A stretch of 60,349 bases of DNA, the filler included, from Dugesia japonica (Eukaryota): NCBI GenBank assembly GCA_001938525.1. It is 6 parts of 6 records of this genome, joined end to end, with 100 filler letters (N's around TTAATTAATTAA, not from the genome) between each part and the next. Parts side by side here need not be neighbours in the genome. Positions count along the whole stretch, not along the records: positions 9,616 to 19,457 come from MQRL01627670.1; 5 more parts are not named here. The stretch is one strand, 5' to 3'. The notes under the pieces were generated by a model. It was not told where the DNA came from. It worked only from the letters and a program-made list of their open reading frames with translations, and did not search any database. The position numbers and the translations under genes are program-made. Below are positions 13 through 42,303 of this stretch, one piece after another; position 1 is the stretch's first letter; every line of letters begins with the position of its first letter.

Positions 13-323
13 CCGAGGAAAAATTTGACCAAAACGCCAAAAAATTACCCAAACCAACCAATCCCGAGGAAATACGTAACCAAATTCATCTGAATCAATC
101 AAAAATTGATAAAATCGTCCAAAGATTGACCAATAGTGCCTAGACCGAGTAAATAACTGACCAAATCGTCCAAAGATTACCTAAACTGGCCAAAGCCGAA
201 GAAAAATTTAACCCAATCACCTAAAAATTACCCAATCTAACCAATCCTTAGAAAAAATTAGACCAAATTCACCTGGGCCAACGAAAAATCAACCTTATTC
301 CACCTCACCGAGAAAATTTTCGA
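13..323. repeat. Degenerate satellite-like tandem repeat (~180-bp period built from ~30-bp AAAAATT-ACC subunits)
   Basis: gccgaggaaaaatttgacc at 13 recurs as gccgaagaaaaatttaacc at ~194, and the following sequence also aligns; runs into an N gap. Confidence 0.6.
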
Positions 324-576
324 NNNNNNNNNNNNNNNNNNNNNNNNNNNNNNNNNNNNNNNNNNNNNNNNNNNNNNNNNNNNNNNNNNNNNNNNNNNNN
401 NNNNNNNNNNNNNNNNNNNNNNNNNNNNNNNNNNNNNNNNNNNNNNNNNNNNNNNNNNNNNNNNNNNNNNNNNNNNNNNNNNNNNNNNNNNNNNNNNNNN
501 NNNNNNNNNNNNNNNNNNNNNNNNNNNNNNNNNNNNNNNNNNNNNNNNNNNNNNNNNNNNNNNNNNNNNNNNNNAT

Positions 577-701
577 TAGAAAAATTTAAAAACAGTTATG
601 TAATAATCTCGCGACAAGATTAATTACATTATGTAACGCACACAAATGATCGCCGCCGTCTATTTACAATAGAAAAATTGAAAAACAGTTATGTCATAAT
701 C
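577..701. repeat. Pair of ~32-bp direct repeats
   Basis: tagaaaaatttaaaaacagttatgtaataatc (~577) and tagaaaaattgaaaaacagttatgtcataatc (~670). Confidence 0.7.
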
Positions 702-769
702 CGATTACGTATAGGGGCATGGGGGTTCTACTGAATGTGTGCTATTCTTTACCTCCACTATCTATCTAC

Positions 770-983
770 TTTGTAATCGAATGCTTTTAATATTATACTA
801 CAAATATTCTGTTTTTAAAGGTTCTTTACATCCCATTATTCTACAATTTCCTGATTTAAAAAATATAATAGTATATTTGCCGCTTTTATTAACAACTTGT
901 GATAGTTTTCCTGAAGGAAAGTTTATCTTTTTGGTGACTTCTTGAGATACTTTTCCCCTGTAATTATTATTAACAATTATCAT
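770..983 (-). pseudogene. TBP (TATA-binding protein)-fold gene, N-terminal repeat, truncated; part of a Polinton-like module
   Basis: MIIVNNNYRGKV...YTIIFFKSGNCRIMGCKEP resembles the TBP repeat motif LIFxSGKxVxTGAK; after a stop it continues YNIKSIRLQS (like TBP FKIQN); homologous to 46535-46662. Confidence 0.6.
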
Positions 984-1082
984 TAATAATTAATAGTTAT
1001 TATTGGTATATATATACTAGGGTTTTGTTGAAAGTACCTTTATTCATTTAAACATTATAAACATAATAGTAATTTATATAAA

Positions 1083-1716
1083 ATAAAAAAGGAATTGAGA
1101 AATGATGCCGTCTATCAAATTGTTGGTACAAGTGGTAGTAGGAAAAACCTTGTTTGTAAATAAATTATTGAAATCACATTTATTCAAATTAAAATTCAAC
1201 AAAATATACTGGCATAGAGGTGCGGATGAGGAACATGGTTTAACACAATCAGAATTCTGTAATATAAAAATGAAAATCATAAATGGATTCAATGAAAGTT
1301 GGAGAAAGAGATTAACCAGAGGTGATGTAATTATAATAGATGATCTATATCAAGAAGCCAACAAGGAAAATGACTTTAAAAATTTATTCACAAAGATATC
1401 CAGACATTGTAACATGGCTGTGATATTTATTTCTCAAAATATCTTTCATCAAGGAAGTAGTCATAGAACTCGAAACTTAAATGTGCAATACTTGGTTCTA
1501 TTTAAAAATCCACGAGATCAAACAGTAGTTGATTTTCTAGCAAGACAGGCCTATCCAAATAATAGAGAATTTCTTATTGATTCATTCAATGATGCAACAG
1601 TAAATTCGCATGGCTATATTTTTATAGACTTTACACAGCAATGTCCAGATGATCTTAGGGTACGAACTGATATTTTCAACTCAAAAGGAATCACTGTATA
1701 TAAACAATCAAGGTAA
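1083..1716 (+). pseudogene. A32/FtsK-like DNA packaging ATPase of Polinton/Maverick (adintovirus) type, with a +1 frameshift in Walker A
   Basis: Upstream frame (I)KKELRNDAVYQIVGTSGS, an extra A at 1140, then GKTLFV rebuilds Walker A GTSGSGKT; Walker B VIIIDDL; LFTKISRH, ISQNIFHQG, NVQYLVLFKNPRD, DAT..HGYIFIDF and RTDIF are typical Polinton ATPase motifs. Confidence 0.9.
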
Positions 1717-1734
1717 TTATATATATTTATAAAA

Positions 1735-1925
1735 ATGTCAAAATTTTAAAAAGTTATAGTTTATTAAGTAAAGCAATTGAAAACTAATGTTCTTCCAAAG
1801 GTCAAGAAGCAGATAAAGAAAAAACAAAAAAACAGATCAAAGATTTGAACAAGTTTAAAAAATTAGCAAAAAATTATGGAAAGAAAATATCAATGAAAAA
1901 TGGTAAATGGTTAAAGCTATAAAAA
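1735..1925 (+). pseudogene. Decayed small Lys-rich ORF downstream of the ATPase
   Basis: MSKF*KVIVY*VKQ...KNYGK; same position as, and similar to, ORF 44046-44240 (MTKLKKFVVDQV...KKYGKK). Confidence 0.45.
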
Positions 1926-1954
1926 AATGAAAGTAATTTATTGTTGTGAAAATG

Positions 1955-2190
1955 AAATGAAAACAAATTATTCCGTTTTTTACTGCATTGCTCAAGTCTC
2001 CAAAGAAATCGAGAAAGAATATTTTATAAGCATTTCCATCTTTTGTTATTAATGATTTGCTAGAGATTATTGTAAATGTAGTTCGTGGAAATGTAAATAT
2101 AAGCAAAACCAAAACACTAGTATTGAAAAACCACAAGAATTCTTTATTATCAATAGTAAAAACAAAAGATTAATAAGAAAAGTATTAGGG
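1955..2190 (+). pseudogene. Polinton-type small basic (virion core-like) protein remnant
   Basis: QIIPFFTALLKSPKKSRKNIL*AFPSFVINDLLEIIVNVVRGNVNISKTKTLVLKNHK resembles the EI..N.L.GN small protein that follows the ATPase in animal Polintons; contains an internal stop. Confidence 0.6.
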
Positions 2191-2619
2191 CAGCACTGGA
2201 ACATTTGGACTTTGTTTTAGAAATTTCTCAATCAATTTTTGTTAAAAAACAAAATTATCATTGGAATACCATTGCATAATAAAAGAAAGGGCAAATAATA
2301 AAATGATTTTTGTAAAAAAAACATGTCTCAAAGCTTACCTAGTTTTAAAGAATTATTTTTATTTTCACTTTGTTCTATNNNNNNNNNATTGTCACCTACA
2401 CTATGTTGAAACAAACTGTCAACTTGCAAACTAAAAACACCAATTGAATGCAATGCAGTGCCGCTAGTGGTAATTTTTGTACTACATATAATAGATAAAG
2501 TGCGTAGCTTAAACAGGTAAATTCGTAATATGACAATTTTTATGATATCGTTTAAAGTGTAATGACTTGGCCTATCTCTTTGTGCAATCAGCGACTCAAT
2601 CAAACGTGACGGCAAAAAG

Positions 2620-2790
2620 TTAATAAGTATTAATTCTTTGAAACTTTTATATATTCTTCTACAATTATTACAAAAAGAATTATCAGTTAATAAACATGTT
2701 TTTGAATAAACATGTGATGTTAAACCAGCTTTGTTTTTACATACACGATTACAATGTGTGTAAATAAATTCTGTTATTTTTATAAACAAG
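2620..2790 (-). mobile_element. Zinc-finger remnant, probably the C-terminus of an RTE-like non-LTR retrotransposon ORF
   Basis: HCNRVCKNKAGLTSHVYSKTC followed by CNNCRRIYKS. Confidence 0.4.
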
Positions 2791-3292
2791 AACTTTTAAT
2801 TGGATAGATATTTGATATTGAAGGTATTTATTAAATGGTGATTGCCAAAGCTTTGACATATGTTGATAGAAAATAAGTAACTTTTGGCTAACTATGTAGT
2901 AAATATGAGTACGTGTTGACTTTGCGCTTACTGCTTTTTATTAGAAAAGTAAGAATTTACACAATTAAATTTTTATTGGCGTACTTATAAATAAACAATT
3001 TTTGTTCTTATTTTCTGTAGCTTCTTGCACTTTATGAATTAACAAAACTAGCAGAAAAAGCCTTTAATAACGGAGATAATATTTGTCACAAAATTTATTT
3101 TCAATTTTAAAATGGAACCCATAATTATATTCGAAAAGCGTTAAAGTAGGCCAGTCAAAAAACAATCCCATGTCCGATTCAACAACATTCAAAAATACAA
3201 TGCTAACCAACTGCTTCAATCCAAAATATTTAAAACCAACAAAGAATATTTCTTTACTTTACTGTAAAATTATATTCTGTGGCAAAGTCAAT

Positions 3293-3620
3293 TACAGTCA
3301 ACCCTCATTAATCCGAAACATTAGAAATCGATTTCATTTGGATTGTGAATTAATTCGGATAATGAAGGAATTTAAATTCTATATGATCGCCAGATTAATG
3401 ATGAAATTATTAAGAAAATGACAATTATTTATTTAAAAAATCATCTAAAGATTTTTGTAGAGTTTTCTTTTGAATAAATTTCTGTAAATCAACTTTGACT
3501 TCTTTTAAATTTTTTACTGTATCATTGGTTATTTTTTGAGTAAAACTGTTTGAAGAAAAACTTGCTTTGATGACAATTTCAATTGCGTGGAATAAATTGC
3601 TTGGACAAATGTTGTAACGG
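3293..3620. mobile_element. Tigger/pogo-like element end
   Basis: TA|CAGTCAACCCTCATTAATCCGAA with an internal inverted copy ttcggataatgaagg, typical of pogo/Tigger termini. Confidence 0.5.
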
Positions 3621-4019: not shown

Positions 4020-7000
4020 TAACACTTAGACCAACACAGGGACAAGCAACTAATACTTTTTCAATTATTTCTTATTCAAACTAGATTTCGCTTCATTCTC
4101 ACTAAGTTTCTTTGCTTTAATTTAGAAAATTGATAGGTAAGAACAAGAGTGAGATTGATTAAATTTACTTTAACTAGTAAGATTTAATCTGAAATTTGAT
4201 AGTAGTCGATAAATATTGTCGGAAATTGCACAGTAGTCAATAAAAATTTCTGAAATTTTATAGTAGTCGATAAAAAGTTTATAAAATTGCACAGTAGTCG
4301 ATAATAATTTTATGAAATTGCATAGTAGTTCATAATATTTTGAAAATCCTATGTAAATGAATGAGAAAATAATTCAATTATTGCACAGAAGTCTCTAAAT
4401 TAATAAAAAATTAATTAAAAAACTAATAATTTCAAAAATTAATTAATTAAAAGTTAAAAACATTAATCGAACATTTATTAATAACAAAATAACTCTTCCA
4501 ATTTCTTCAACGATCTATCATAACCTANNNNNNNNNNNNNNNNNNNNNNNNNNNNNNNNNNNNNNNNNNNNNNNNNNNNNNNNNNNNNNNNNNNNNNNNN
4601 NNNNNNNNNNNNNNNNNNNNNNNNNNNNNNNNNNNNNNNNNNNNNNNNNNNNNNNNNNNNNNNNNNNNNNNNNNNNNNNNNNNNNNTTATTTTTTAACAT
4701 AGATAACTTGATGTTACGTTTAGAAAATAATTCCATATCAGTTCTTGATGATAAATCTGGTATTTTAATAGTAGAAATCTCATGAAACATTTCTCTTTGT
4801 AGAATTTCAGCTTTTTTAATCTGATGATTTACTTTGGAATTTGATAACGACTTTTGGATATTGAGAGGTTTTAATTCTTGCAAAACTTTCTAAAAGAAAA
4901 AATTCAAAACTTTTTATTATCATTTTTATTGTTAAGCATTACTTGGCATTTATCTGACTTTAATTTTGATAATTTATTGTTTAAATAATTGATAGTACCA
5001 TGAAAACAACTAATTTCTGATAAAACTTTATTATCAGACTCTTGAATATGATAACTGTTGTGGACTGGAAAATGTCAATTAAATGAAATGAGAGCTAGAA
5101 TGAAGAACAGACCTGATGTGGAGCCAAGATCAAATGAATCTTTATCTTTAGCGTCTGAAATGCGTTTAATATCGGTTTGCATCTGTGATAATTTTTTTAC
5201 TAATTCGGATACTTTTTCACTTTCAGTTCTAAATATAATCCTTTAAATATTTGTATAAGTTATGAAACATTTGGTAATACTATTTTATAATTATACTAGC
5301 CAAGTTATCAAGTTTATCAGGTATCCAAAATGAATTTAAAAAATGAAGTTAAATAAATTTAAGTTAGTGATAATATATTTCACCCACCTGTATTATCACT
5401 TTATCTAATTATAAAGTAAAATTTACTTATTGAACGAATAAAATTATTATTATTATTATAAAAAAATTTATTATTATTATAAAAATTATTATTATAATTT
5501 TTACTCCCCAACATTACATTCTACATATTTTCATTTTACATTAATAGCATTTCAAAAATTAAACTTTAAATGAAGTACTCTTGATATTTTGGATTGTTAT
5601 TGGTAAATTTTTTTATATTTGTAGCATAATTTCTCAACATTTTATTGTTTTACAATCTCCTCTTAATGAATTCAGTCACTCTACTATTGCCATATATTCT
5701 ATTTTTATTAATTATATAGTATACCTAATATAACAATAGAAAAATATATGTAAAAGATAAGAGAATTTTTCTTACTTCTTTTCAAGGTTCTCTAATTTAA
5801 TAATTTTGTCACTCAGTTGTCGTATTTTTATATCCCGACTTTTAATACCGTCCTCATATTTCTTCTTGATATGATTTACTTCTAGAATACTTTCTCCCAA
5901 AGAACTCGATTTCTTTTGTAACTCCATATTAAGTAATGACAATTTTTCATTTTGTTTCTTGATCTCCGAAGGTAAAGATGAAAGGAGGCCACATTTTTCT
6001 CGATAATTACTAGCAATCAAATCTATAGAAGAAGAAGACTGAAATATATTTTCATAAAATGAATAATTTCAAGATTTTAGTACTCGTGTAATTGTCTTGT
6101 CTGTATCATACACTCCGGACTTGAAATTTGCAACGATTTCTCCACTTGATTGCTCTATTGAGTTTAGTTTCCATATTATTTCAACTAAAGAAATTTCGGA
6201 TGAATGTAATTGGAATTTGCAAAGAAGTTCAATTATTCCATTGATTGCTTCATCTGGTATGATATTTTCCTTATATTCATTTATCTTTAACCAATATCAA
6301 AAGAAACTTTCTTACATCATTTAATTGCAACCCATAATCAGCAATCGGTAGCACAATATCGATCATATTTATCGCAATTTTATTCATAGATTGGCAAAGA
6401 ACAGAATCAAATGTAATTTTTTGATTTTGTCTTAAAAATACTAATGAACCTTTCATTTTTGAATAAAGGTTTGTCGAAATGGCTTGCATTTTGATAAGAA
6501 AATCTTTGAGTTGCTTGTCAACAGTCATCTAATATAATTTATAGTAAATTGTATTTTTGAAAATAAATGAGAGATGTAGCACTGATTATTATCTGAGAGC
6601 GTGAAATATCCAAAAACGATAAAGTTCGAATGAGAATTGACAGAATGACAGGGATTCTCTGTAATGGTGAAAGAATTGTTAAAAATTAGATAAAGGCAGA
6701 AAATGAAAAGTTTTTAATTGTTCGGTATAATCATATGATCATCTATTGAGAACGATTGTTCTTTTCTTCAAAATGAAGTAAACTTACTTAACAACTTAGA
6801 TTAAATGAAAATGGAAATATTAAAATATTAGAATCAGGAATTTATAGTTTACCATTTTTAAAGCTCTGCACGATCTAAGTTGAATCATAAATGGAGTTCT
6901 TAAAATATTGAGAAGTTTCTATTTCTCATTAATTTGTTATTTCTGTAAATATTTTCAGCATTTTATGATAAATTTTTCATGTGAAATTATTTTCTAATTT

Positions 7001-7708
7001 TATTCATTACAAATTTCTACTGTAGATAGTTGTTAAATTTTCCATTTTCTGCTTTCATTTAATTTAAATTAAATTAAAACAAAAATAACTATAAAAAGTT
7101 AAATAAAATCTCACATTTCCAATCATCTTTGTAATCCATCTGAGATCGTTAGAGAGACATTCAGAACCTTTCATTAAAACCTTGATAAAGTCATTCATTT
7201 TGATGTTACAATCAGCCGGTTTCGTATTAAATATTTCATCATAAATTTGTTTGAAATATGTTATTGATTGGATAATATTAGAGAAATCTCTGTTGCAATC
7301 GAGATTTTGGTTTTTGATCAAGCCAATTAGCGAATCCAAACTTGTTTCATGTTTTATTATCTCTTTATGGTAATTTGCAATTGTATAAAGAGATTCCGGA
7401 GAACAACACTCAAGATTTCTAATAAATCCATCAATAATTAAAACAAATGAAATTCTACTACATTTGTAATTGTTTTAAAAATCCTTTCCAAATTAATAAT
7501 AATAATTCAGTTTTATACTGAACACTGATATTTTCATGCTTTTCTTCTATGGAACCACCATGTCTAAATCTTCGTTTTTCAGATATCTGAAATCAATNNN
7601 NNNNNNNNNNNNNNNNNNNNNNNNNNNNNNNNNNNNNNNNNNNNNNNNNNNNNNNNNNNNNNNNNNNNNNNNNNNNNNNNNNNNNNNNNNNNNNNNNNNN
7701 NNNNNNNN

Positions 7709-7765
<57 letters not shown>

Positions 7766-8269
7766 TGAAGAAGAAGAAGAATCCTAACGATAATAGCATT
7801 AATGATAATGATAATACTAATAATAATAATAATAAATAGAAATATGAACAGTGATGTTAATAATGTTAATATTAATAGTATAAGTAAGAAATAGTATTAA
7901 TGATAGGAATTTTTGTATATTGACTCTTCCTAATGATAACAATGTTGAGGTAATCATTAAACTGAATAACTATGACATATTATCTAAGGAGTCGAAGCAT
8001 GGTTCGTAAAGTTTATCAACAACGAGGATAATAATGAATAAAACGATATTAAATCTCGATATTTAATATTATAATAATCAATAAATTAATTAATAATTTA
8101 TAAATAATAAATCTCTATATTAAATTATAATAATTATAATAATTATAATAATAATAATCAATAATCAATAATAATAATAATCAATAATAATAATATTATT
8201 AATAGTAATCAATAATAATAATAATAATCAATAAATATAATAATCAATAATAAATAATAATAAATAATA

Positions 8270-8319
<50 letters not shown>

Positions 8320-8369
8320 NNNNNNNNNNNNNNNNNNNNNNNNNNNNNNNNNNNNNNNNNNNNNNNNNN

Positions 8370-8430
<61 letters not shown>

Positions 8431-9515
8431 TTAATAGTAATCAATAATAATAATAATCAATAATAATAATATTATTAACAGTAATCAATAATAATAATAA
8501 TAATCAATAAATATAATAATCAATAATAAATAATAATAAATAATAATAATAATAATAATAATAATATTAATAGTAATCAATAATAATAATAATTAAAATA
8601 AAAACTTACATAATCCAAAATCAAAGATATTTTGTCCATAAATCGTTTTACCACTAAAACAATATTAATAACGTCATATTCACCACCAACTCTCGAGAAT
8701 GTTGTCGGCAAATATTGGGTTATCAACTTGATTTGTAAATATTTCTGTTCGAGATCTATTTTCATCAATTTACCGTCAATATCCTAAAGTTTCATAATAT
8801 AAAATGATAAACATGTATTACATATGTATTATTACTTGTTTTATATCAGCTTCTATTGATTTTTGTTTGGCATAATTGATAATTGAAAACCTACGATTTG
8901 ATTCTTGTGCTCTTTCTATGATTTCATTTTTTCGAGNNNNNNNNNNNNNNNNNNNNNNNNNNNNNNNNNNNNNNNNNNNNNNNNNNNNNNNNNNNNNNNN
9001 NNNNNNNNNNNNNNNNNNNACATTTTCTTGCTGTTTTTCATAGAATGAATTTTGGAGTTTAATAAATTGCTCATTAATACAATCGTATTCTTCGTGTAAA
9101 CTTCTCATTTCTTTGTTTTTAGTTTCTATTACTTCGAGATTCTTATCTTCTATACGATCCTAATTCACAAATAATAAATTTAAAACAAAAATACTAAATC
9201 TACTAATTCGATTAATTTTTTATTCTGTTTTCTCAATTCCTCTTCTAAATTGCCATTAACGAATGTTAACTTATCTACAATAGCTTGTGCATCTGCAGTG
9301 CTATCGACTAAATCTTTCATTTCTTTTAAATCTCGTTCATATTTTTCTAATTTTGTTTTCGACGTCTCCAATTCTGCTTCTTGATAAAATTTTATTTCTT
9401 TTAATATTTCCAACTAAAATAAATATTTCCTTATTTAAATGAGACTGATTACATTTCTAATATAACCTCTGCATCTTTCTTTTTACTAATTTCTTCTAAA
9501 CTCTTATTGTCTTGA
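4020..9515 (-). CDS. DCTN1: Dynactin subunit 1 (p150Glued), multi-exon, 5' part cut off by the scaffold end
   Basis: Exons encode QDNKSLEEISKKKDAE|LEILKEIK...LVDSTADAQAIVDKLTFVNGNLEEELR (cf. [26 protein letters not shown]), YLPTTFSRVGGEYDVINIVLVVKRFMDK (cf. [25 protein letters not shown]) and VANFKSGVYDTD (cf. MQEGEYDAE); GT-AG introns of ~30-60 nt; 3' end approximate. Confidence 0.88.
4172..4335. repeat. ~30-bp minisatellite, probably intronic in DCTN1
   Basis: Five to six copies of (ca/ta)gtagtcgataa..tt..gaaattg. Confidence 0.8.
7709..8592. repeat. (AAT)n microsatellite-rich intron of DCTN1
   Basis: Long AAT runs with internal duplications. Confidence 0.9.
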
Positions 9516-9615
9516 NNNNNNNNNNNNNNNNNNNNNNNNNNNNNNNNNNNNNNNNNNNNTTAATTAATTAANNNNNNNNNNNNNNNNNNNNNNNNNNNNN
9601 NNNNNNNNNNNNNNN
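9516..9615. other. Artificial scaffold spacer (44N-TTAATTAATTAA-44N)
   Basis: Identical 100-nt structure found five times; the core gives stops in all six frames. Confidence 0.95.
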
Positions 9616-11459
9616 AATAAAATTACTTGAAACATATATATTATTGAACTCTTGAGGAATTTCATTTTGATTCCATGAAATTCTGAAGGCTTTCCGTAAT
9701 CTACAGTGATGGTCATTATCTTTTGTTAAACTAAAAATTTGTTGCATGTTAAAAAAGTGATAATTTTATTAAATGTCTTTGCTTTTATAGTCTGCGTTGA
9801 AAAACATTAAATGAATAGTTTGCATGTATTGCTTTTTATTGGTTGAAATGTGTTACTATGATTATTATCATGTTTTGATTGGTTTTTCTTTGTTTAAACA
9901 ATATAAGTGCAATAAAAATGCAATTCCGTTGCCAGTTAAACAAAACAAGTATATATTGATGATTGGTTGAATTTATTTGGTTGTGTTACAACAAATTTGT
10001 ATATAAACAATTTATTTACCGTTTANNNNNNNNNNNNNNNNNNNNNNNNNNNNNNNNNNNNNNNNNNNNNNNNNNNNNNNNNNNNNNNNNNNNNNNNNNN
10101 NNNNNNNNNNNNNNNNNNNAGATCTTGCAAGAAGAATAATAAATGAAATGTATCCAGAATGCGAAAGAAAATCCAAACTGTTGGAAGAAGAAGAATGTTG
10201 GGACTACGTTCTGGAAAAAGAGTTGATTGATATAAAGAGAGTTTTATACCTTTTTGAAAGCGAATTTGAAATAGTGTTCGGGCGAAACAACCAGTCAAGG
10301 AGGAAATTAGATTATCACCACCAACAAGTACTCTAAAGAGAAAAAGGAATAATACGTTATTATCACAAAAGAAAACAAATACACAAAATGAAATCAGGTC
10401 GTAAATTAATGACAAAAGGAACAATCTAAGAAAAGCTGATAAATGCGTACTGAGATAATCAAATCAAGGAAATTACTGAATTATTATTTAAACAGCGGGA
10501 AAATGATTAACCGGAATAATTAATTATAAAGAAAAATATAAATTAATTAAAAACTAAAATAAATTAAAATTAAATCAAAATTCATTTGGGGAGAATATCT
10601 ATGCCCCAGAAGATCGGAGGAGCTCAGCACAAGAAAATTTCCGAAGAAATTAGGGCTAGTCATCGATTTTTTCTGGTCTACAAATTCCATCACGATCCGA
10701 AATGATGTTATAAGGTCCAAAAAACTAGACCAATGGGAGGTCAAAAATTAAACTTAAAACAAAAGCATCATTATCATGTGCCTTTACAAAAATAGGCACC
10801 AATAGAATGCAGAGAATTCCGTAGAAAAACTCTGAGACTTGGTACCAGCTCTAATGAAAAACCAAAATACGAAATTAAAAATAACCAGCCAGTGATGATC
10901 AAATCGGGGTGTATTCAGGAAGCTATTTAAACCCCCAGAAAAAGTAACGGAGATAATTAGAAAAAACGAAATCACCTGGTATCATTACGACTTAATTCGA
11001 AGATTATAAATTGCAAAGTCAACTACCTATTACGTTATCATAGTATTCATAGCCAGCCTAGTGAATAGGTGTGTTACATTGTTTTTGTTTTTTACGGTTT
11101 TACCGAATATTTTCCAGTGATATGTGTGTAGAAGATCCATCAAATTTAGTAATCATCCTGTTTTTGACACACAATATTCAACTCTGACTTCTATGCACAC
11201 ACGCACACGTTAAGTCATCGGCTTAATTATTATGGCTCACCAGGAGGATCGATGTCTTAGTAAATAATCAAAAACAAAAACAGCAAGTCACTAAGCAACC
11301 ACATGCGGCAACTATTTAAATTGACTAAATTAATATGATTTTGGGTTTTTCCCCAGTAAAGTTTCTGCTGGTTAAATTGTGAAATTATACCGGAAGATAT
11401 AGAGACTAATTATAATTACCCCCACTGATCTTTTAAATTGTATGGAACAATAAGGCGCA

Positions 11460-12146
11460 GGTCTATTCATGTTTTATGTCTACCCCTAATCCAAACCATT
11501 TCTAAGGATAGTTTAAGAAATTTTTGTCATTAAATCGAGATACTGATACTGTAATTGCGTGATTACTACTACTCATCGAGATCTCGCAGATTCCTACTAA
11601 TATTGCAGGATCATCGTTAGCATTATGATGGGTAGCTGGTATTATGTTGCTACGGATAATCTTGCCGCTGCTGGCTTTATCGGGAAGGTAATTTTTCAAT
11701 AGGTCCGGTCACCGCGTTACTAGTGTTAGGATTAACTGCCCCACGATTATAATAGTCACTGACATTCACCATGATCACCCTCAAACCTTTAGTATCAGTA
11801 TCCTAGTTGGAGATAGGGTAAATTTAAGCTCCTGCAGTTGGCCAGGGATTTTGGTTGCAATAAAGTCCCGATAAGAAATCGTTATTTCTTTTGTAATTAA
11901 AGCCCTAGCTGAGGCTGACGGATTAATAATTTTCCTTTTAGTTCATGACAGCAGAACTATACCACACCCTCCAATGGATAAAGAAGCGACGACAGATAAC
12001 TCGGATAAGGCAGTTAATAGCACATCTGTCAACCAAGGGTAAAGTGGAATACCCAGATGAAACTGACCTGTGTTATCTAGCAGAGATGTTCCCTTTAGGT
12101 GAGGAAATGGATAAAGAATGATTTTCTTGTCTTGTTGGCGACTCAA
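11460..12146 (-). pseudogene. Decayed ORF of unknown function in a GC-richer island
   Basis: Coding-like frames broken by stops and frameshifts (ORFs 11943-12146 and 11502-11699, with GLRVIMVNVSDYYNRGAVNPNTSNAVTGP between). Confidence 0.4.
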
Positions 12147-12249
12147 TGATTAAAATAAAATTCAGTCGAATCTTTCGGTGTTTTTCTCGCTATTTATATA
12201 AATCATTTCTTATAACCTAAGGCCATTTTATTAGAATTTTATTTAGAAA

Positions 12250-12498
12250 ATGGAATCTATATGGGAACGTATAGTCGATCGGCGGACTCGCCGTATAATT
12301 TTCCGTCGACATAACAATCCCCACGATCGAGACGCGGGAATTCTATCCAACAGATCGAATTTACCTCCAGTCGAAGCTGCTGTGGCCCGTATCCAGAGCT
12401 TCGGGGAGCGATTAAGTTTTCGGCAATGGAATGGGCCGGAGCGCAATCATGCTACCCAGTTCCGATATCAACCCCCAGCACCCCCGCCAGTAGTATAG
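12250..12498 (+). CDS. Hypothetical Arg/Pro-rich protein (element-associated)
   Basis: 82-aa ORF, much higher GC than flanks, AAAATGG start context downstream of tatttatataaa (~12191). Confidence 0.5.
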   Translation: MESIWERIVDRRTRRIIFRRHNNPHDRDAGILSNRSNLPPVEAAVARIQSFGERLSFRQWNGPERNHATQFRYQPPAPPPVV

Positions 12499-12790
12499 GC
12501 CTTTATTACCAATATGCTATGGGGAGTTAGGGAACCCTCCGGGTCGGAGGATGCCGAAAACTCAGCTCCAGCCGAAAACATTACTCCGGACCCTTAATGT
12601 ACAACGTGTTGTGAGCTGATTCGTTTAATAAATGAATGTTTAATTAGTCTAAATAGTTTTTCTTCAGTTATTAGTTTTAATGAACAAGTCACTTTAAAAT
12701 CATACTATTAAATTTTTATACCTTGAGTAAGGTTGATTAAATGTCAGTATTGATATTCTGAGGGAAAAGCTATTACCATATTTTATTTTA

Positions 12791-13150
12791 GTGCACTCCT
12801 CCTTAAATCGTCACACAGCTCCTACCAAAAAAATTCGAGACACTAGTGAGGACAACGAACTCACTTGGGACTTATATCGTCTAGCAAAACGACGCTGGGA
12901 GGCCGACGTGGCAGCTGCCAGTAGTAAAGTACTCCGTTATAAAAAGAAATGTGTTCTCAACAAAAAGGAAGCAAAGGCCTCCCACCTACAAGAGCGTTCT
13001 TGGAAGAAGCAGGTGGATTCTTTTTCGGAAATTATCCGGTCTAGCCATAACCGAGAAAATAATCTGGTCAGTGATATCCTGCGACTCCGGGAGAGAATTC
13101 CTCTCGAACCTTTAACGATCGACAAAGGCACCCAGACCCCGCGGAGCTAG
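12791..13150 (+). CDS. Hypothetical basic coiled-coil protein exon
   Basis: 119-codon open frame starting at a ttttag| acceptor; AATAAA ~20 nt after the stop. Confidence 0.55.
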   Translation: MHSSLNRHTAPTKKIRDTSEDNELTWDLYRLAKRRWEADVAAASSKVLRYKKKCVLNKKEAKASHLQERSWKKQVDSFSEIIRSSHNRENNLVSDILRLRERIPLEPLTIDKGTQTPRS

Positions 13151-13266
13151 TTACGTTCATGCTTTATAAATAAATTTATTATTCAATTTTTTCTTTGGTG
13201 TAATTTGTTAATATGTCCATATTCATTGAAAATTTTGTAAATTGGTATTAACATTGTTTATTTTAG

Positions 13267-13647
13267 TGCCTCACATCAACTTCCCTAATAGCATCCGTCG
13301 TTGTCACCGTATAATGCGCCGTCTGTTGGTGGAGCGACATTTAAAACGGAAGACAGATAAAGCTCTACTAAGACACCTAAGCCAACGGGATAGGCTAATA
13401 AAAACTCGACCATATAATAAAGAAACAGGGTGATCTAGCCATCCAAACTAAGGCCCTGGAAATCGAAACCAAACGGCTTTTGCAAAGGAAAATAGAGTTC
13501 CTAAAGCAATATATAGGGGACCTTTCCCGCCAGATTGGCAATCCAACTTGGGCGCAATGGGATGATAATGATGATGTCGTCGCCTTTGATGTAACCGAGA
13601 CCGATCCAACTCAATGGTTAGATCCAGGGGCTCTGGATTTAATATAA
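13267..13647 (+). pseudogene. Hypothetical basic + leucine-zipper-like + acidic-tail protein exon, one frameshift near 13403
   Basis: PHINF..RRCHRIMRRLLVERHLKRK..RDRLIK / LDHIIKKQGDLAIQTKALEIETKRLLQRKIEFLKQYIGDL..WDDNDDVVAFDVTETDPTQWLD; ttttag acceptor; AATAAA at ~13660. Confidence 0.5.
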
Positions 13648-13959
13648 ATGTTTTCGTAAAATAAAATGTGTATAATAGAGATCGTATTCTTTTTCAAGAG
13701 TTATTAATAATAGGGAAAATAATGAACCACCATTAATAGGGAAAATAATCAACCACCATAAGCTGAAAATCTGCCCTGGGGTGGCAGATATAAATTCTTA
13801 AGAGGGTTCCCCTGAGGGTTGTTTTTCCCCAGTTATCGGTTTCTTCATTCAACTCAGGTGGAATCCCAACAATTGTATCAATGTGTGTAACCAATCCATG
13901 TCCATACTGGGTAATGCGGGAAATTATTTTAGAAAGATTTCCATGAATTTGGTTTGTTC

Positions 13960-14116
13960 TAGAGAAACGATGACTCATCATTATGACTCATACTTACGAC
14001 TTATTTGCTTTTTTTCAGGCATCGATGAGTCATACTTATGACTCATTCTGACCTAGAAAACGATGACTCATAATTATGACTCATCGTCTTTGTTTCAGTC
14101 ATCGATGAGTCATACT
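13960..14116. promoter_or_regulatory. Array of seven perfect ATGA(C/G)TCAT AP-1/GCN4 palindromes in two tandem units
   Basis: TGA(C/G)TCA cores at 13971, 13984, 14026, 14039, 14064, 14077 and 14106. Confidence 0.75.
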
Positions 14117-14189
14117 TTGTTGTACATGTTCTTTGTCTAGGGGGGTGATCCAGTACGTCACTATCTACCTACTAACAAGGAAACAAATT

Positions 14190-15210
14190 TATGAAAACTC
14201 ATAAAAATGAAACAAATTTTAAAAAAGTATTGATTTGTGATGTTGAAAATGCATTATATACATGTTTTCTGAACGAAAGAATTTACAATTAAATTGTAAA
14301 TTATGAGGTTTTGAAAATCTAGTCTTCTGATTTCATAGAAAATGAACTTCAAAAGTTAAATTTCAAGTCAAGCGTCATGGAATTCGTCTATTGAAAATTA
14401 ATGGAGAGAAGCTTTTTTGCGAATCATTCAGCTGTTTTTGACTTTATTCAAAATTTTTGTGTGGAAGCAGTACTTCTAAACTTATAATCTGAATAAAGCT
14501 ATAACTCTAATGAGACCGAATTGATAAACAAAAATTTAAATGATAAAACTTTGATGCCTTACGTTAATGCAACTGATACTTACAAATTTTCCTTAATTGT
14601 GAAATAGAAGGCAAAGAATCCACTGCGTTTTAAAAATGCGACATTGCCGGATATTTATTATAAGTCATCCATAAATGCATGGTAAACGCAAGAATTATTT
14701 AAGGAGTGAATTTATGATGTTCTAATACCACTAGTAACTCAAAGTTTAGTTTAAAAAGGTTTATTAATAAAATCGTTTCTCCTTTGGGATAATGCAACGT
14801 GTCATGTTATCGATCATGAGTTAAAATCTGAAGATGGCAACTTTACAGTTAATTTCTTCCCACCCAATAATACATCAGTTCTGCGGCTTCTGGATCAGGG
14901 TATAATTAAATAAATAAAGACAAAATTTTGAAGAAAAGTTCTGTGCACCTTATTAGCAATGATTGGTGATGTAGCCACTAAATTAAAAAATATTTATCTG
15001 GAAAACGTACTCGTTTTATTATTGGAATCATGGACTGAGGTGCAGTAGTCCACTATATTAACTGATTATAAATATCTATTTCCAACAATATAAAAATTAT
15101 CTGTTGAAGATGTGGATAGTATCCTTTTGACTCATCTTTATCTATCTGCTGCACAGGAAACTACACATAATGATGAGGATATACAAGCTTGGAGACCAGA
15201 AGCAAATGAA
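14190..15210 (+). mobile_element. Tigger/pogo (DDE_1, CENP-B/jerky-like) transposase pseudogene
   Basis: LMPYVNATDTYK...KAKNPLRFKN..LP..YKSSINAW, LLWDNATCH and FFPPNNTSVLRLLDQGII; many stops. Confidence 0.9.
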
Positions 15211-15289
15211 TATATCCGTGTATACCTGCTTGAAAAGTTGTTTTTGAACTAGGTGCATCAACCATAACTGTTTTTAATCTGTGGCGAAA

Positions 15290-15745
15290 CATTGGGAAAT
15301 TAATGAAGCTCAATTGACAGAAATACAAAAAAATACTTCTTTTGCCCAACAAAAGCAAGTCATTCCTTGATCGGATTCATATATGCGACGAGAATTAAAA
15401 ATACTGTACATCAACCGTCAATGTTTTGATCAATAGTTGGATCAAAATGAAACTCCTAAATATTTTCCTAAGACAAAGCTGTTTCGATAAAAGTTTATAA
15501 TTAAGCTGTTTCATGATCTTCTCCAAATCTAATTCATTATAATCTTTTGAACATTAGTAAAACGATAACTGCAAAGTGTTTGGTGATGAAATCAATGAAA
15601 TAAAACAGAAACTAGAACCATAAGAACGAACGGCCGCACATCGCACAGTATACTTTCCAAAAATTAGACCATTAAAGCTATGAAATTCTGCCTCCCCACG
15701 CATACTCGCTAGATCTTTTAACTATTGATTATCATTTTTCCAAAT
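15290..15745 (+). mobile_element. Mariner transposase remnant
   Basis: LPPHAYSLDLLTIDYHFF (YSPDLAPxDY motif), with a PHIAQ motif upstream. Confidence 0.7.
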
Positions 15746-17141
15746 ACAATATTTACAGTTTGATACTTGCGATGGAAAAAATAGAATTAGGAAAATAACG
15801 AAAAAGAAAAAAAATCAACCGAACACAAGTAATATCGTACAGAAGTAGTACTATCTATTAAATAATAATAAATCATAGTTAACGTGTAAAAGAAACTGGC
15901 CAAAAAAGAATAGCCACTACAAAAAACATACCAATAAAAATAAAAAAGTAAAAAAACTTATGAAGAATAAATAAAAATAAATAATAGAATCAAGTAGAAA
16001 TGCTATATTAAAGACAAGGAATTAAATAATTAATAAAATCTAAATAAAGCGTTCAAGAGGAAGCAAAAATCATTCGACAATATAGTGAAAACTAGAAGTC
16101 AAAATCAATAACTACCTATAGCAAACCAAATAAATCAAATATTCCCTACAACTTGATAGATAACCGAGCATCATACGTCAATCTGAAGTCGCTATTTAAT
16201 TTTGTGTAAAGAATTCATGGAAATGGTATTTTTTTACTGTGAGGATTTGTATGAAGGATTATTTTTAACTTTTTAAAGACGGTTGTTAGTAAGTATTTAT
16301 TTAAAAATTTATAAGATAATTCAGCTAATTTAATTCAAAGGTAGATCGTTTAAATATTGATAATTTTGTGGAGCAGGGTTTTAATTTTAAGTTATAAAGA
16401 TAATTTCAAAAACGAAAATTCGATTTTAAAATTTAATTGTTGGATTTATATTTTTCAAGTTCGTATAAGAAAAGATTATCAATTTTAATAAATAAACTGG
16501 TCGAAATGAATGCGTTGTCTTATAGTGAAGTTGAACTTAACAGTTACAATTTCTTCAGAAGTATGTGAGTAATAAGGAGCAAAGTTGGAAAAGAATAAAA
16601 ACCTAATAAATGCTACAAAATATTTACAACTTGTTAAATTAGCATAACAAATGAAAAGGTATGAAAAGCTAATAGATGAAAAAACCCCCCCCAATCAGAA
16701 TTTGATAGTAAAAGAACTGTGATTTAAAAGAAAAATTAATTTTTTCTCAACACATTAAGTTGAGAGGGACTTTTCAGATTCTCAATTTAGTATGCGCACA
16801 ATAATGCGTAGGAAACAACCAGAATTTTGAATCAACTATTAATAAAGTATCAAATATCATAAATCTTATTATTATTATATTAAACTTATTTGTTAATTGC
16901 AATTGTTAACCTGTGGCGGAAATAGGTTTTATATATTATACCGGAAGTAAAAAGAATTCTAGGAACTCAAGGTCAGTTTTAGTCAACCTTTTGTTATCAA
17001 GAAAATTTATGCCATCGTGCATTTATAGTTATGTTTTTTGCTTTTTAAATTTTCTATGTAGCTATAGTAATTTAGTTTATTTATAAAATACTCAATTAAT
17101 TCTATCTAGATTAATCAGTATATTTTGGTTATGATTAATAT

Positions 17142-17765
17142 TATTAGGTTGTCTGTAAAGTTCTTTCTGTTTTTTATTAAGAAATAAAAAGCAATTTTTA
17201 AATACACAAAAATCAATTTAAAACCAATTGGCCATTATGATCCACAATTTTTGATTTACTGATTTTTGACATTTCTTCTGCAAAGAATTCTTTAATTTGT
17301 TTGATTACCGACAACAAATATTTGAGTCCATTGTAGTATTAATTGTAAAGAGTTTATAATATACAATTTTTTTATAATCAGGCCAGATTGACAACATGAT
17401 CTTTTCTGGAGAGTTGATGTTTGAGGTGGCTCACCGGACTTGAGCCATGATACATTATTAATATATCTCCGGTTATCAGTTTCTTCAAAAATGGATTGGT
17501 CTGAAGAGTATATGGTAGATATTGATTCTTTGCATTAAATGAATTTCCTTCAATTCATTTGGAATCCAAATATCAAACTTCATTATGTATCCAAGCATTC
17601 TTAATTGGTCAATAACAGTTATTTACGATACTTTTACCAATCCTGCTATGTCAAGAATCGTTGTGTCTATAAAATTCTTTGATAGTCTTTACTTGGTCTT
17701 CAAACGTTGCCAATGGCCTACTAAAATAGGCAGCATCTTTAAATGACAAATTTCCGGAAAAACAT
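17142..17765 (-). mobile_element. Mariner element remnant with terminal TATTAGGTTG
   Basis: LRMLGYIMKFDIWIPNELKEIHLMQRINI (WVPHEL motif); mariner-like terminus at ~17142. Confidence 0.75.
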
Positions 17766-18055
17766 TTTAATAACAAGCATTCACTTAAAATATTAAAACG
17801 TCATTGAGCTTTGTGCGGTAAGGAGGGTAAACAACGAAGAGAAAACGATGCAGCGGTGAAGATGTAACTAGTAGAAGCCAATATGCAGGTTTTACTTTTT
17901 AAGCTGAGGGACAGATACCAAAAAAATTTGCAGACGAGCAGCAGAACTGACCAAGGAAGAAATCATATTCCTGAGGTGACAGCAAGTGAACAAAAACGGC
18001 TAATACGTTATCAGCAATTAAAGTTTCTGAGGACTGTTGTTTTATAACTACAAAA

Positions 18056-18517
18056 CTACAGTTTTGTTGTTTTTCTTTCGTTTGTTGTCAAGGACTCCAT
18101 TTTTATGATGACGAGTTTCTGTGAAACTTCCTGCTCTATGGCACCATTGGGTGTCAATGCCAGTACCTGATCTTCCAGATGATCCAACTGCATCCGACTC
18201 GTCACTTCTTGCGTTACCAACTGGGCAACTATCCCCTTGATGATCTCTATTCCTTTCCTGAGCTTCTCATTGTCCTGCTGGTATAATTGCAGTTTATTCT
18301 GGGTATCGATCAACTATTGCTTTGCACTCCAAAATTTCACCACAAACTGTCCACCCTTATGCAGCAACTCGGTTTTCTCTTTTTCATATTTTGTGCGTTG
18401 CTCATTTAGCAGCTCCACAGTGTTTCTCCACGGAACCCAGAAGGTTCCCTCGTCTCCATCGTTTTTCATGANCAACGGAATGTGTGGCTGATAGTATTNG
18501 GTCATGATTTCTGGCAA
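18056..18517 (-). pseudogene. Coiled-coil ORF of unknown family with one in-frame stop
   Basis: ORFs 18314-18517 and 18056-18313 are in the same frame and separated only by TAG; GC-richer than flanks. Confidence 0.5.
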
Positions 18518-19179
18518 ATAAATTTATAAAAATTTGTTATGACAATATTAAATGAGATTCATAAATTAAAAAATGAATTTAATTAATAAAACGTTTCTTC
18601 GGCCTTTGGCCTATCTGCTCTTGTTCTTTGATCCTAACATGCGAACCAGAGAAGATGACCATCCAGAACCATCTTCTTTCCTCGTTCTCATGCTTCCAGA
18701 GCTCTCGAAAGATATGCTTAATGGCAAGTCCAACATGACGATGACCTTTAAAAAACGAATTAAAATGATACTTCTGGCAAAATAAATCAATTTTTATAAA
18801 AATAAAAATGTAAGAATCGGGAGGAAAATTCTCGATTGAAACTATCCTATTCAATTGCATGTATTAATCGTTAATCAAATAAACTTAACGGTCACTATTA
18901 ACTATTATGTTTATGCTGTTTTATAACTAAAAGAAACTAAATAGACAAAATATATTTTAAAAAACGGCCGATTACATATTATTTCGACTAAGCAACATCT
19001 ATTTCTACATCCCCTTCTCGAATTTATTGTTTGTATTTAGGATTTACTTTTCGCTCTCAAATTGATTAGCGCCTGTCTTTCCTTACGGTTTTCTGTAACT
19101 CTAATGTATTATGTCTCGTTGTTCCACTGATCATAGATTCAGAATTGTAATTAGTTTGACGCATCTTTCCCTTGAACCG

Positions 19180-19457
19180 TTTTACTTGGTGAATATTCCT
19201 TGTTATTCTTTTATTGTTCAGTAAAAGCTCTAAATTATTATTAGGTAAAATATTATTAACTTTTCATGGTCCTGAGAATCTCCTCGTAAGCATACTCCTC
19301 TCGTTCGATTTTACCCAAACCAAATCCCCTACTTTGGCTTTGTTTTGTTCTGTTCGTGGTTCTTCCGGTATTTTCCGCTGGTTTCTTTTCTACTTAATAT
19401 TGTTTTCTGCAAACTCTTTCTTTGCCTTTTTGTTGGTTTTCTGATTCCTTATTTCTC
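19180..19457 (-). mobile_element. Ty3/Gypsy integrase C-terminal (GPY/F) remnant
   Basis: KVGDLVWVKSNERSMLTRRFSGP*KVNKIL. Confidence 0.65.
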
Positions 19458-19557
19458 NNNNNNNNNNNNNNNNNNNNNNNNNNNNNNNNNNNNNNNNNNN
19501 NTTAATTAATTAANNNNNNNNNNNNNNNNNNNNNNNNNNNNNNNNNNNNNNNNNNNN
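19458..19557. other. Artificial scaffold spacer
   Basis: 44N-TTAATTAATTAA-44N. Confidence 0.95.
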
Positions 19558-28948: not shown

Positions 28949-29109
28949 GTTTAAACTGTTAATTGTTAAAATTTTTAAATGAAATTATCTGAAATATTTG
29001 AATTATGGTTCAAACATGGAGTCTTTTTTCTAATAAAAAATTCCTTTGAAACAGACAAATGAAAATGGCATGGGATAATTCTGTAAAATATGAGTTCATT
29101 TACGAATGC

Positions 29110-29280
29110 AGAGAATTAGCATTCAATCGAAGGTTCTTGGGCTTTGTGTAAGGAAGAATTTAAATATATGTTTAGTAGATCAAATAAATTTTTACCATCA
29201 TATTTAGATGAATTTATGTGACGGAGAAGATTTTGCTGGGCAGAATTGGCATTTGATGTTTTAATAAGACATATTTAATG
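29110..29280 (+). mobile_element. Merlin (IS1016/ISXO2-like) transposase C-terminal remnant
   Basis: SIEGSWALCKEEFK...FLPSYLDEFM*RRRF...AFDVLIRHI. Confidence 0.8.
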
Positions 29281-29809
29281 AGAAAATTCTATAATTTAAT
29301 AAAATTTGTCTGTAATATTTATTTTTTAATTTTTTTAATATATATAATTAATTATTTAATAAAATTAATTAGTAAAATTTGACGCTCTTTACTTTAATTT
29401 TACCTTTATTTTGTTCATTGAGTTGAGACAAATCTGTTAATGAAAAATATTAATTAGATAAATAGTTTTATAATTGGATCTTTTTAATAGTTTAGTTTTG
29501 TTTATTAGAATTCTGTTGTTTTTGTTTATCTATGTCACGGTTTGTCTTAAAAAAATCTGAAACAGCTAACTTTTATTCATTGGTTTATATCAATACTTTT
29601 ATATCAAAATACTTTTGAATAAATGAAAAATAAATTTATGAATTTTTTATTTTGTCGATATTTTTTCATTTTTTTGTTTTAAAATATGTATAATTTTTAA
29701 AATTTGTTTGTAATAAAAACAAGAATCCTCGTAGAAATTTATAATTTCTTATGTTGGGTTTTGTAATTCCAATATTTTAAAAATTGATATTAGATTCTCT
29801 TTGTTATTT

Positions 29810-29940
29810 CATTAAAATAAGAAAAAGCTTCGATCAAAATAAAATTTATTTGTAAAAAGTTTCAATTTTTCGACAATAGTCTTCTTCAGGAACATGTTGA
29901 CTTCTTGATATATTCAATACAATAGATCTTTGTTACTCAA
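29810..29940 (-). mobile_element. Copy of the Penelope-associated 3' repeat with a hammerhead-like core
   Basis: Reverse complement closely matches 52123-52280; contains gttc-CTGAAGA-agac tatt gtc-GAAA. Confidence 0.7.
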
Positions 29941-30040
29941 NNNNNNNNNNNNNNNNNNNNNNNNNNNNNNNNNNNNNNNNNNNNTTAATTAATTAANNNN
30001 NNNNNNNNNNNNNNNNNNNNNNNNNNNNNNNNNNNNNNNN
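29941..30040. other. Artificial scaffold spacer
   Basis: 44N-TTAATTAATTAA-44N. Confidence 0.95.
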
Positions 30041-31374
30041 AAAAAAAGGATAATAATGATTTGTAATCACAATAACCCTAAAAGGTAACTAAACGGCGCG
30101 GCACCATATGGATGATGCATCGTGTAGTGCTTTTATTAAATATGAATAAAGTTCAGGTAATCCCGATATCAATTGTGTTAGCGACTGTGCATAATTAAAG
30201 CATATGTAACCTAATTCGTGAGTAGTTGATACTTAAAAGCGTTACTTTCGTAATAATTTAAAGTTATTTTCTTATTTGTTTTCCTTATTAAAATCGATTA
30301 AAATAAAAATCCATCTCTGTGCTTGAATACACGAGAAACTTGTTAATCAGTGTCAGAATCATAAATGATCATTTAAAGACCGCAAATTATCCCTGTTTCG
30401 TCTTATTTTTTAGGCACGTGTCTAATTAAGAATACTTAAAAAAATTAATATTAATCTATTTGTTTAAATCACTTGCTAGAAAAATGTATTTTAAACTGAA
30501 ATGTTTTAAATTTAAAATAAAGTGAAATCTTTGATTTGACTTCATTAATGTATTTGTCAGTGGTTGATGAGTTCGTTTGACTGATTTAAAACAAATACAA
30601 ACAATATACATAAGGGNNNNNNNNNNNNNNNNNNNNNNNNNNNNNNNNNNNNNNNNNNNNNNNNNNTTTAGATTGAACAAATTTTATAAATAACTCATTT
30701 TCTAATTACAATAAAACACTTCTTGTCCTGATCGAATCGTAAAAATTTCATTGTGTGAAAATTTATAAAATAATGAATTGAGAAAATTATAATAAATAAA
30801 AGAGTTAATAAAAATATAAAATTAAATTATTTTTAACGAAATGTAAATTTGAAAAAAATTATGCTGGAGAAAAATACGTTTCCGAAAATGTGAATGATAA
30901 ATAAAATTAAAAACATGAGCAAGGACATGGTAGGTCTGACAAGTGTGCTTGAAAAGAATGGAAAGCGATACTCTTATTATGAAATAATTAAAATAATCAA
31001 AAATTATGAAACTATTAAGTCAAAATTTACAAAATTTACAATTTGTGAAATCTGATGCTAAGAAGAAACTATATAGACAGACGATAAATGGGAAAAGATG
31101 ATACAGGTTAGGCATATAATTTAATTGAATAAATTCAATAAAAAAATTAATACGAAAGAATTAGAACTTGAAGTTAACATCAAAATTTAGATATAGAGAA
31201 ATGTAAATAAATATCTTCCACATGTAAANAAATAAATATCTTCCAAGTCAACACGTTATGTGAACAATATATTCACTATTTTTGTTGGCAACAATCAACC
31301 AGACTAGAAACTAGAAAAAATGTTTTTTGTTTTGAAACAGATATAATAGAAACATTCAATTGAGATATTTTTAC

Positions 31375-31449
31375 GTATTGCCTTTATATTTATTAACGCG
31401 GAACATCTATTACCTTGGTGTTCTGCGGAACATAGTTTGCAAAACCTTG
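31375..31449. mobile_element. hAT/Charlie-type element end
   Basis: gcggaaca..gttctgcggaacatagtttgcaaaaccttg resembles Charlie 3' termini. Confidence 0.45.
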
Positions 31450-31882
31450 ATATAGTACAATATAAAAATATTAGTTTTTAATTAAAAAATAGTTCATGTG
31501 TAATGTAAGAAAACAAGCCTTGAAAATTCATATATATTAGGTTCCAAAATTTGTTACACTTTGGATCCTTAGTAAAATAAATCCGTCATTAATTATAAAC
31601 GTTTTGCTTCAATCGACTCAAATATTCATATTTATTCTGGTTTAAAAAAATATGTAAATGTGTAGCAATACAAATCCTTAAGATTTATTCAATTTTTTTC
31701 ATTATTTTTTTTACCAAAATTATTTTATTCCAAATTTCTGTTACACTCAATCAGAATAACTAAAATACGAATTATGTGAACTAGGTTTAATGTTTACTTT
31801 CATTTTTTATTTAATTTCGAAAATATTTTTGTAAATTCCTTGATTTAATTTTTTAATAATTATCAATTATAAAACTGAATTA

Positions 31883-35364: not shown

Positions 35365-35480
35365 TTTTAATATAAAACCTCTGATCAAAATTTTTGTTTT
35401 TTATTGATTCAATTGTTATTGTTATCCAATATCAATAAAAAACCAAAATTTTGATCAAAGCTTTTATATTAAATGAATTC
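35365..35480. repeat. Long AT-rich hairpin (fold-back) element, same family as 58290-58420
   Basis: taatataaaa..tgatcaaaattttt..ttattgat / atcaataaaaaaccaaaattttgatcaaagcttttatatta. Confidence 0.7.
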
Positions 35481-42203: not shown

Positions 42204-42303
42204 NNNNNNNNNNNNNNNNNNNNNNNNNNNNNNNNNNNNNNNNNNNNTTAATTAATTAANNNNNNNNNNNNNNNNNNNNNNNNNNNNNNNNNNNNNNNNN
42301 NNN
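42204..42303. other. Artificial scaffold spacer
   Basis: 44N-TTAATTAATTAA-44N. Confidence 0.95.

Follow-up and report, generated by a model that had tools for sequence, protein, structure and literature searches.

The consensus site of AP-1 is TGA(C/G)TCA. Arrays of such sites are carried by viral and LTR enhancers, and the ends (ITRs) of adenoviruses carry sites for host factors. DNA transposons commonly have repeated subterminal binding sites, non-autonomous Helitrons combine high copy number with variable internal tandem repeats and with ends that are shared by different interiors, and Ginger elements have the same TGT...ACA-type ends as LTRs. Among described elements, Mavericks (Polintons) appear closest to the locus reported here. 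In PMC8097293, vertebrate Mavericks have terminal inverted repeats (TIRs) of 46–1,447 bp, 6-bp target duplications, and accessory ORFs flanking the core, and their end repeats serve jumping-back priming; they end in 5'-(AGT)2//(ACT)2-3' or (AG)3//(CT)3. Polinton remnants and TIR-only insertions are described for C. elegans in PMC11414722, and DNA/Maverick expansions in Dugesia planarians in bioRxiv 10.64898/2025.12.11.693146. PMC8969392 describes solo LTRs as starting with TGT, with a 4–6-bp target-site duplication and an end printed 'CAC', and canonical Helitrons as having a CTRR 3' end after a hairpin, which can be small or imperfect.

We analyzed a 60,349-nt stretch of Dugesia japonica DNA (the window), which consists of AT-rich eukaryotic sequence; exons of dynactin and F-BAR genes are scattered in it, together with numerous remnants of transposons. 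It is made of pieces of ~9–12 kb that are joined by five N44-TTAATTAATTAA-N44 linkers (9516–9615, 19458–19557, 29941–30040, 42204–42303, and 51305–51404), so neighbors across a linker need not be neighbors in the genome. The subject of this work is an array of AP-1 motifs in the piece 9616–19457.

A tandem array of AP-1 motifs

A pattern search of the whole window for ATGASTCAT gave nine matches where 0.67 were expected, a count that none of 100 shuffles reached. Seven of the nine form the array (13970–14113, no strand assigned), with starts at 13970, 13983, 14025, 14038, 14063, 14076, and 14105. For comparison, 150 bp would by chance hold 0.0019 copies of one such 9-mer, and the shorter TGA(C/G)TCA heptamer occurs 13 times in the window, seven of them inside these 144 bp. 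Starts are 13 bp apart in each of three pairs (13970/13983, 14025/14038, and 14063/14076). A preliminary description of this DNA had reported seven ATGA(C/G)TCAT palindromes, three pairs with 13-bp spacing, and a match to the Jun/Fos-type AP-1 consensus, and it was accurate in the positions, the pairing, and the agreement with the consensus alike. The central C/G is the sole position that varies among the seven sites, and the AP-1 consensus permits both bases.

The array is built hierarchically. Its monomer is 13 bp long, a 9-bp palindrome followed by a 4-bp linker; monomers are paired in ~40-bp sub-units, which in turn make up two larger units. These larger units, at 13983–14037 and 14063–14117, are 85% identical over 55 bp, and TRF assigned the array a period of 42 with 3.3 copies and 69% matches, which bears out the two diverged tandem units described earlier. 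A degenerate monomer with seven of the nine motif bases lies one 13-bp step on at 13996, and one of the eight AP-1 sites expected is absent from the copy at 13970–14113. Because the seven sites go back to tandem amplification of the 13-bp monomer, they are not independent and the shuffle test overstates the surprise; judging by the repeat structure, the site count reflects one amplified motif and not seven separate events. We propose that a 13-bp monomer with one AP-1 site would have been duplicated into a pair, then into ~40-bp units, and then into units of 80–90 bp. The array pattern had 0 matches in viral contigs, and an Rfam scan returned 0 matches.

The array belongs to a high-copy element

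We found 24 public runs, of which eight, from three studies, hold part of 10130–14200. Four of the 24, namely two sets of contigs and two RNA runs primed with oligo-dT, were aligned to 10130–18400 at 85% likeness. Contigs match the flank right of 14180 with 0 differences; the alignments indicate that both contig sets come from the window's species, and one of them may be the source of the window. Summed contig depth was 29,099–47,609 in the pair of bins that contain the array (13718–14269) and 35,638 and 44,640 in bin 10130–10405, against 7–32 (median 13–15) in the seven bins of the flank from 14270. The raw depth ratio between the array bins and the flank median is ~2,000–3,500; summed contig depth does not equal copy number, and the element nonetheless ranks among very abundant repeats.

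The two regions of high depth are halves of one high-copy element (10120–10274 and 13872–14173), split by an island. The left visible half (plus strand) holds the 5' part of a small, continuous, intronless ORF, which enters from an N gap at 10026–10119. The right part of the ORF (13872–13946, plus strand) closes with a stop at 13944–13946, just upstream of the array and ~230 bp from the element's terminus at 14173. A joint from 10273 to 13875/13876, which skips 3601/3602 bases, was present in both DNA contig sets and in eight RNA reads with five different starts. A phmmer search with the left ORF half alone retrieved P0001 (E = 5.5e-13), which is 65 aa long and comes from a contig in ENA. The left half is identical to P0001 at 34 of 42 positions (residues 1–42), and the right half at 16 of 25 (residues 41–65). 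A second phmmer match to the left half, the repetitive butterfly protein P0002, was rejected as spurious.

P0001 is the sole known relative of the ORF product, for which no known family was found. P0001 had no loci in metagenome and viral contigs, with all Atlas matches under 0.9, and a search of longer proteins for homologs of the ORF's left half was empty. The probable promoter side of the ORF is 9616–10025 (plus strand), with three ATTGG boxes and a TATA-like word at ~10002. We infer that this stretch, which lies beyond the N gap and outside the aligned read region, is part of the same element.

First mates over the ORF were mostly on the minus strand (28.7 vs. 3.4; X10), which suggests that the RNA reads there are sense transcripts. 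Only five of 367 RNA reads in X10 and one of 47 in X13 had ≥95% identity to the locus; with nearly all of them below this level, the reads come from other copies. The copy at 10120–14173 is dead.

Three nested insertions

Immediately to the right of the element lies a dead Tigger/pogo transposase remnant (14176–14910, plus strand), into whose coding region the element was inserted. With stops read as X, a single frame of the remnant, starting at 14176, matches DDE_1 (E = 5.4e-14). Contigs over it have a depth of ~4–6 and 0 differences, and one of them spans 14088–14617. Since the Tigger frame starts just outside 14173 and is single-copy, the element is an insertion into a dead Tigger, as opposed to a repeat that belongs to that transposon. 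The candidate origin of the array as a Tigger/pogo subterminal repeat was accordingly rejected: the likeness is one of adjacency only, whereas the transposase frame lies outside 14173 and the array is thousands-fold deeper. The preliminary description had weighed its reading against a plain subterminal repeat of a DNA transposon, such as the adjacent Tigger, that shows no motif-specific conservation. In its general form that alternative applies: the array is a mobile element's subterminal repeat, though not Tigger's, and some motif-specific retention remains.

The island that splits the element (10275–13871, no strand assigned; 3,597 bp) has TGT...ACA ends with a short imperfect terminal inverted repeat. 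It is flanked by ATAG (10271–10274) and ATTG (13872–13875), a 4-bp target duplication with one mismatch. These junctions, the joint from 10273 to 13875/6, and the match of P0001 across both ORF halves identify the island as a separate, later insertion that interrupted the ORF which the array's element carries. The nesting order is Tigger, then the array's element, then the 3.6-kb island. Summed contig depth over the island bins (10406–13717) was 46–3,378, which is 10- to 1,000-fold below that of the array's element, and most copies of the element appear to be without the island. Almost no RNA reads covered it in the two runs aligned. The island has plus-strand ORFs at 12250–12498, 12788–13150, and 13313–13647, together with TATA-like words, AATAAA words, and splice-acceptor-like TTTTAG sites; Pfam, PHROG, and homolog searches of the ORFs tested gave no convincing match.

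The island could be a solo LTR or a Ginger-like element. Its TGT...ACA ends and the ATAG/ATTG pair with one mismatch fit the end features of solo LTRs, and these features together with moderate repetition make it resemble a Gypsy solo LTR and a Ginger element; because both have the same ends, end features do not separate the two. It differs from either in being unusually long and in having several small ORFs that match no known family. No integrase was found in the island, nor any internal gene of a retroelement.

The preliminary description had placed the array at the edge of this island, with the suggestion of an enhancer or origin. In favor of this, only ~100 bp separate the array from the right end of the island, whose small ORFs come with TATA-like and AATAAA words. 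Against this, the island's own ends and target duplication leave the array outside, the array's element exists without the island, and island depth is far lower. The placement therefore has to be corrected: the island is a separate insertion ~100 bp upstream of the array, with no TGA(C/G)TCA anywhere within 10275–13871, and the reading of the array as an island enhancer is largely refuted as to origin. A locus-specific host enhancer meets a different obstacle, since dynactin, the nearest host gene, lies beyond an artificial linker, and a link between array and dynactin gene was rejected for that reason. We consider an island enhancer or origin, or a locus-specific host enhancer, extremely unlikely.

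The element's terminus and its sister ends

The terminus of the element (14140–14173, minus strand) reads 5'-AGTAGGTAGATAGT, with a C-run ~30 bp inside, and its last 34 bp are common to other families. Contig depth drops to the flank level past the bin that holds 14173. Among the loose ends listed, 24 RNA reads lie behind 14173, where the continuing sequence is heterogeneous (agreement 0.47), and 22 lie before 14140; the last 34 bp are thus common to copies with differing interiors. The array is 60–204 bp inside this end, in agreement with the element-edge location proposed for it earlier, and it is very probably a terminal repeat of a mobile element.

Two further copies of this 14-bp end lie at 757–770 and 45799–45812. 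The window holds four matches at ≤2 mismatches where 0.29 are expected, the fourth of which, at 54770, is doubtful. When aligned and read inward from the terminal AGT, the three ends are invariant at 13 of 14 positions, whereas the bases outside differ. All three read AGTAG(G/A)TAGATAGT, with the terminal AGT exact in 3/3. Neither of the other two same-ended elements has an AP-1 site. The 21-bp end pattern had 0 matches in metagenome contigs. The 14-bp pattern had at least 120 matches in viral sequences, which were rejected as they look like chance: one of 120 had an AP-1 site within 250 bp, one of 120 had a C-run, and one of 120 was near a contig start, inside a phage-like ORF.

The second same-ended element, at 575–770, has a subterminal 32-bp repeat region with four PAR/CEBP-like bZIP words (596, 629, 689, and 705). 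The third, at 44330–45812, is C-rich on the plus strand and has four CCAAT words and an E2F-like word at 44565–44950. It sits between two pieces of an ATPase-gene region, with C-terminal codons on both sides.

A32-like ATPase remnants are present at 1102–1716 (plus strand), 45857–46454 (minus strand), and 44204–44314 (minus strand), the first two being 77% identical in DNA. We take them to be the A32-like packaging ATPase of Maverick type; the Pox_A32 match (E = 0.003) is below the Pfam cut-off, a fold search was uninformative, and no homologs were found in viral contigs or PDB sequences. The two single-sequence folds made in this work, the ATPase among them, had pLDDT 38.5 and 59.2, and searches with them gave no match at E ≤ 0.001. 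The ends at 770 and 45812 lie 332 bp and <75 bp from ATPase remnants, and the chance of such proximity for two of two ends is 0.0005–0.001. The remnants are outside the element ends, which shows nesting into Maverick-like DNA and does not tie the ends to those genes.

Classification of the element

The terminus looks like that of a Maverick, and the element is somewhat more likely than not Maverick-type, though not a proven member. Shared with Maverick/Polinton elements are a 5'-AGT terminus with repeats of short period, the extent of the terminal region (a few hundred base pairs), and a small intronless ORF near the end, and A32-like ATPase remnants occur in the same window. The end matches the Maverick (AGT)2 motif at five of six bases, AGTAG(G/A) compared with AGTAGT, the reference motif coming from PMC8097293, which covers vertebrate elements only. 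The assembled piece differs from a complete Maverick in that a second end, a target duplication, and a core gene were not found in it. A search of 9616–19457 for the left end gave no credible match at ≤4 mismatches, the piece having a gap at 10026–10119. The 6 bp that follow 14173 recur at 9944, 10323, and 12683, and at none of these places are they then followed by the end motif. Polymerase B, integrase, protease, and capsid were absent from Pfam scans of 17, 99, and 136 ORFs, with at most ~1 kb of the element present. The apparent copy number, too, is far above that of lizard Polintons, for which under 10 copies are given in PMC3014272.

We read the array as the subterminal repeat of a high-copy element, most likely as the TIR of a Maverick/Polinton-type element or of a non-autonomous one derived from it, and we hold this reading of element and class together to be slightly more likely than not. 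In the titles and abstract openings of the literature searched, there were no AP-1 arrays in Maverick ends and no description of this element; Repbase, Dfam, and supplementary repeat libraries may name the family.

The element might instead be Helitron-type, or some other unclassified one-ended element, in which case the conserved final T would be a target base. The ends seen in the window are right ends in 3/3, each with a G-rich run 30–45 bp inside, and the copy number, varying tandem repeats, and common ends suit non-autonomous Helitrons. The ends read CTAC(T) in 3/3, however, and not CTRR, and no end folds better than its shuffles (z = 0.21, 0.38, and −0.67); we regard this alternative as unlikely.

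Variation among copies and motif retention

Unit number differs in other copies of the element. Among the joints listed, contigs or reads connect 14046/7 to 14115, 14035 to 14074, 14102 to 14061, and 14109 to 13988, and these joints are copies with fewer and copies with more units. Among the loose ends listed, 30 contigs and 30 reads extend past 14117 into an eighth site, which keeps the 13-bp spacing. Loose ends before 14076 (48 and 39 contigs) mark the last ~100 bp, AP-1 sites included, as common to copies with other interiors, and those behind 13951/13958 mark copies that have the ORF and other downstream sequence.

The motifs had been described as better preserved than the spacers. This holds for three of six sub-unit comparisons, in which 17–18 of 18 motif positions but 9–10 of 20 spacer positions are kept (one-sided Fisher p = 0.0001–0.003). 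It does not hold for the other three, all of which involve the fourth sub-unit, where the second site is missing. The test is also partly circular, because the sub-units were anchored on the motifs themselves.

These observations bear on whether the array has any function. A chance palindrome could have been amplified by slippage and unequal exchange in a subterminal region that is prone to repeats, helped by its self-complementarity, and the free variation of unit number among copies, the absent eighth site and degenerate monomer at 13996, the strong fold-back of the array (z = −4.96 vs. shuffles), and the circularity of the retention test are all in keeping with this. Neutral amplification sits less well with sub-units 1–3, in which spacers differ at about half of the positions and motifs at 0–1 of 18, and with the sharing of the last ~100 bp, including AP-1 sites, by copies that have other interiors. 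We think a functionless array rather unlikely.

Possible binders of the array

We suggest that the sites may have been retained because host Jun/Fos-type bZIP dimers, bound near the end, would help the element to be transcribed or replicated while stress or wound signaling is active. AP-1 sites are palindromic and so would work at either end and in either orientation, as a TIR requires. Hints of a host bZIP protein are the restriction of site variation to C/G, the persistence of motifs where spacers diverge, and the PAR/CEBP-like words in the element that ends at 770. Host AP-1 as the selected binder is, from such sequence features, quite possible, if short of probable. The array is like adenovirus ITRs and viral or LTR enhancers in having several bZIP sites within ~200 bp of an element end, tandem duplication, and variable number; it differs in being the end of a DNA element in an invertebrate genome.

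The palindromes could also be sites for a protein of the element itself (an integrase, transposase, terminal protein, or the small ORF product), in which case the likeness to AP-1 would be coincidental. Repeated subterminal binding sites are, as noted, common in DNA transposons, and the array is close to the end and follows the ORF instead of preceding a visible promoter. Yet the other same-ended families have different subterminal repeats, 0/2 with an AP-1 site and one with other bZIP-like words. Differing subterminal repeats behind the same 14-bp end are easier to reconcile with sites for host factors that are specific to each family than with one enzyme site common to all. The seven sites, moreover, vary in just the way that the AP-1 consensus allows. 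An element-encoded binder therefore has a low probability in our estimation. The likelihoods attached to the alternatives in this work address separate questions and do not add up to one.

As it stands, the array is an ordinary transposon subterminal repeat in a clear three-layer nesting. If its sites are bound, one high-copy element would supply thousands of clustered AP-1 sites and would offer a testable handle on the triggers of Maverick activity, a subject on which a full-text literature search found no direct paper. The AP-1 motif class is tied to zebrafish regeneration-response enhancers in bioRxiv 10.1101/2022.05.06.490982. A much bolder reading, which we hold to be quite improbable, is that a Maverick-like family spread thousands of multi-site AP-1 cassettes that link its activation to JNK/wound signaling, and that some of these now act as host injury-response enhancers. 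It would be equally speculative to see the bZIP arrays of the same-ended sister families each as if tuned to a different host state, as that reading would have it. Irrespective of function, the repeat, if unmasked, could inflate AP-1 motif enrichment in Dugesia japonica chromatin data.

Other features of the window

Exons of dynactin p150 are found at 5775–9515 (minus strand), with two matches to PF12455 (E = 1.2e-12 and 1.3e-8) and short introns; a homolog search with a dynactin exon was empty. An F-BAR (FCH) exon lies at 33547–33765. Further transposon remnants include a mariner-type Transposase_1 remnant at 17308–17430 (minus strand) and a GIY-YIG endonuclease remnant at 51448–51885 (plus strand), the latter presumably Penelope-like. 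The stretch 39480–39670 (minus strand), below the Rfam gathering score, resembles by eye what we take to be a short fragment of large-subunit rRNA. A diverged tandem array of 21–22-bp units occupies 43122–43819, with periods of 42, 64, 105, and 210 bp. Finally, a repeated stretch at 18048–18870, with a summed depth of 865–1,528 in the last bin, has short coiled-coil-like ORFs on the minus strand.
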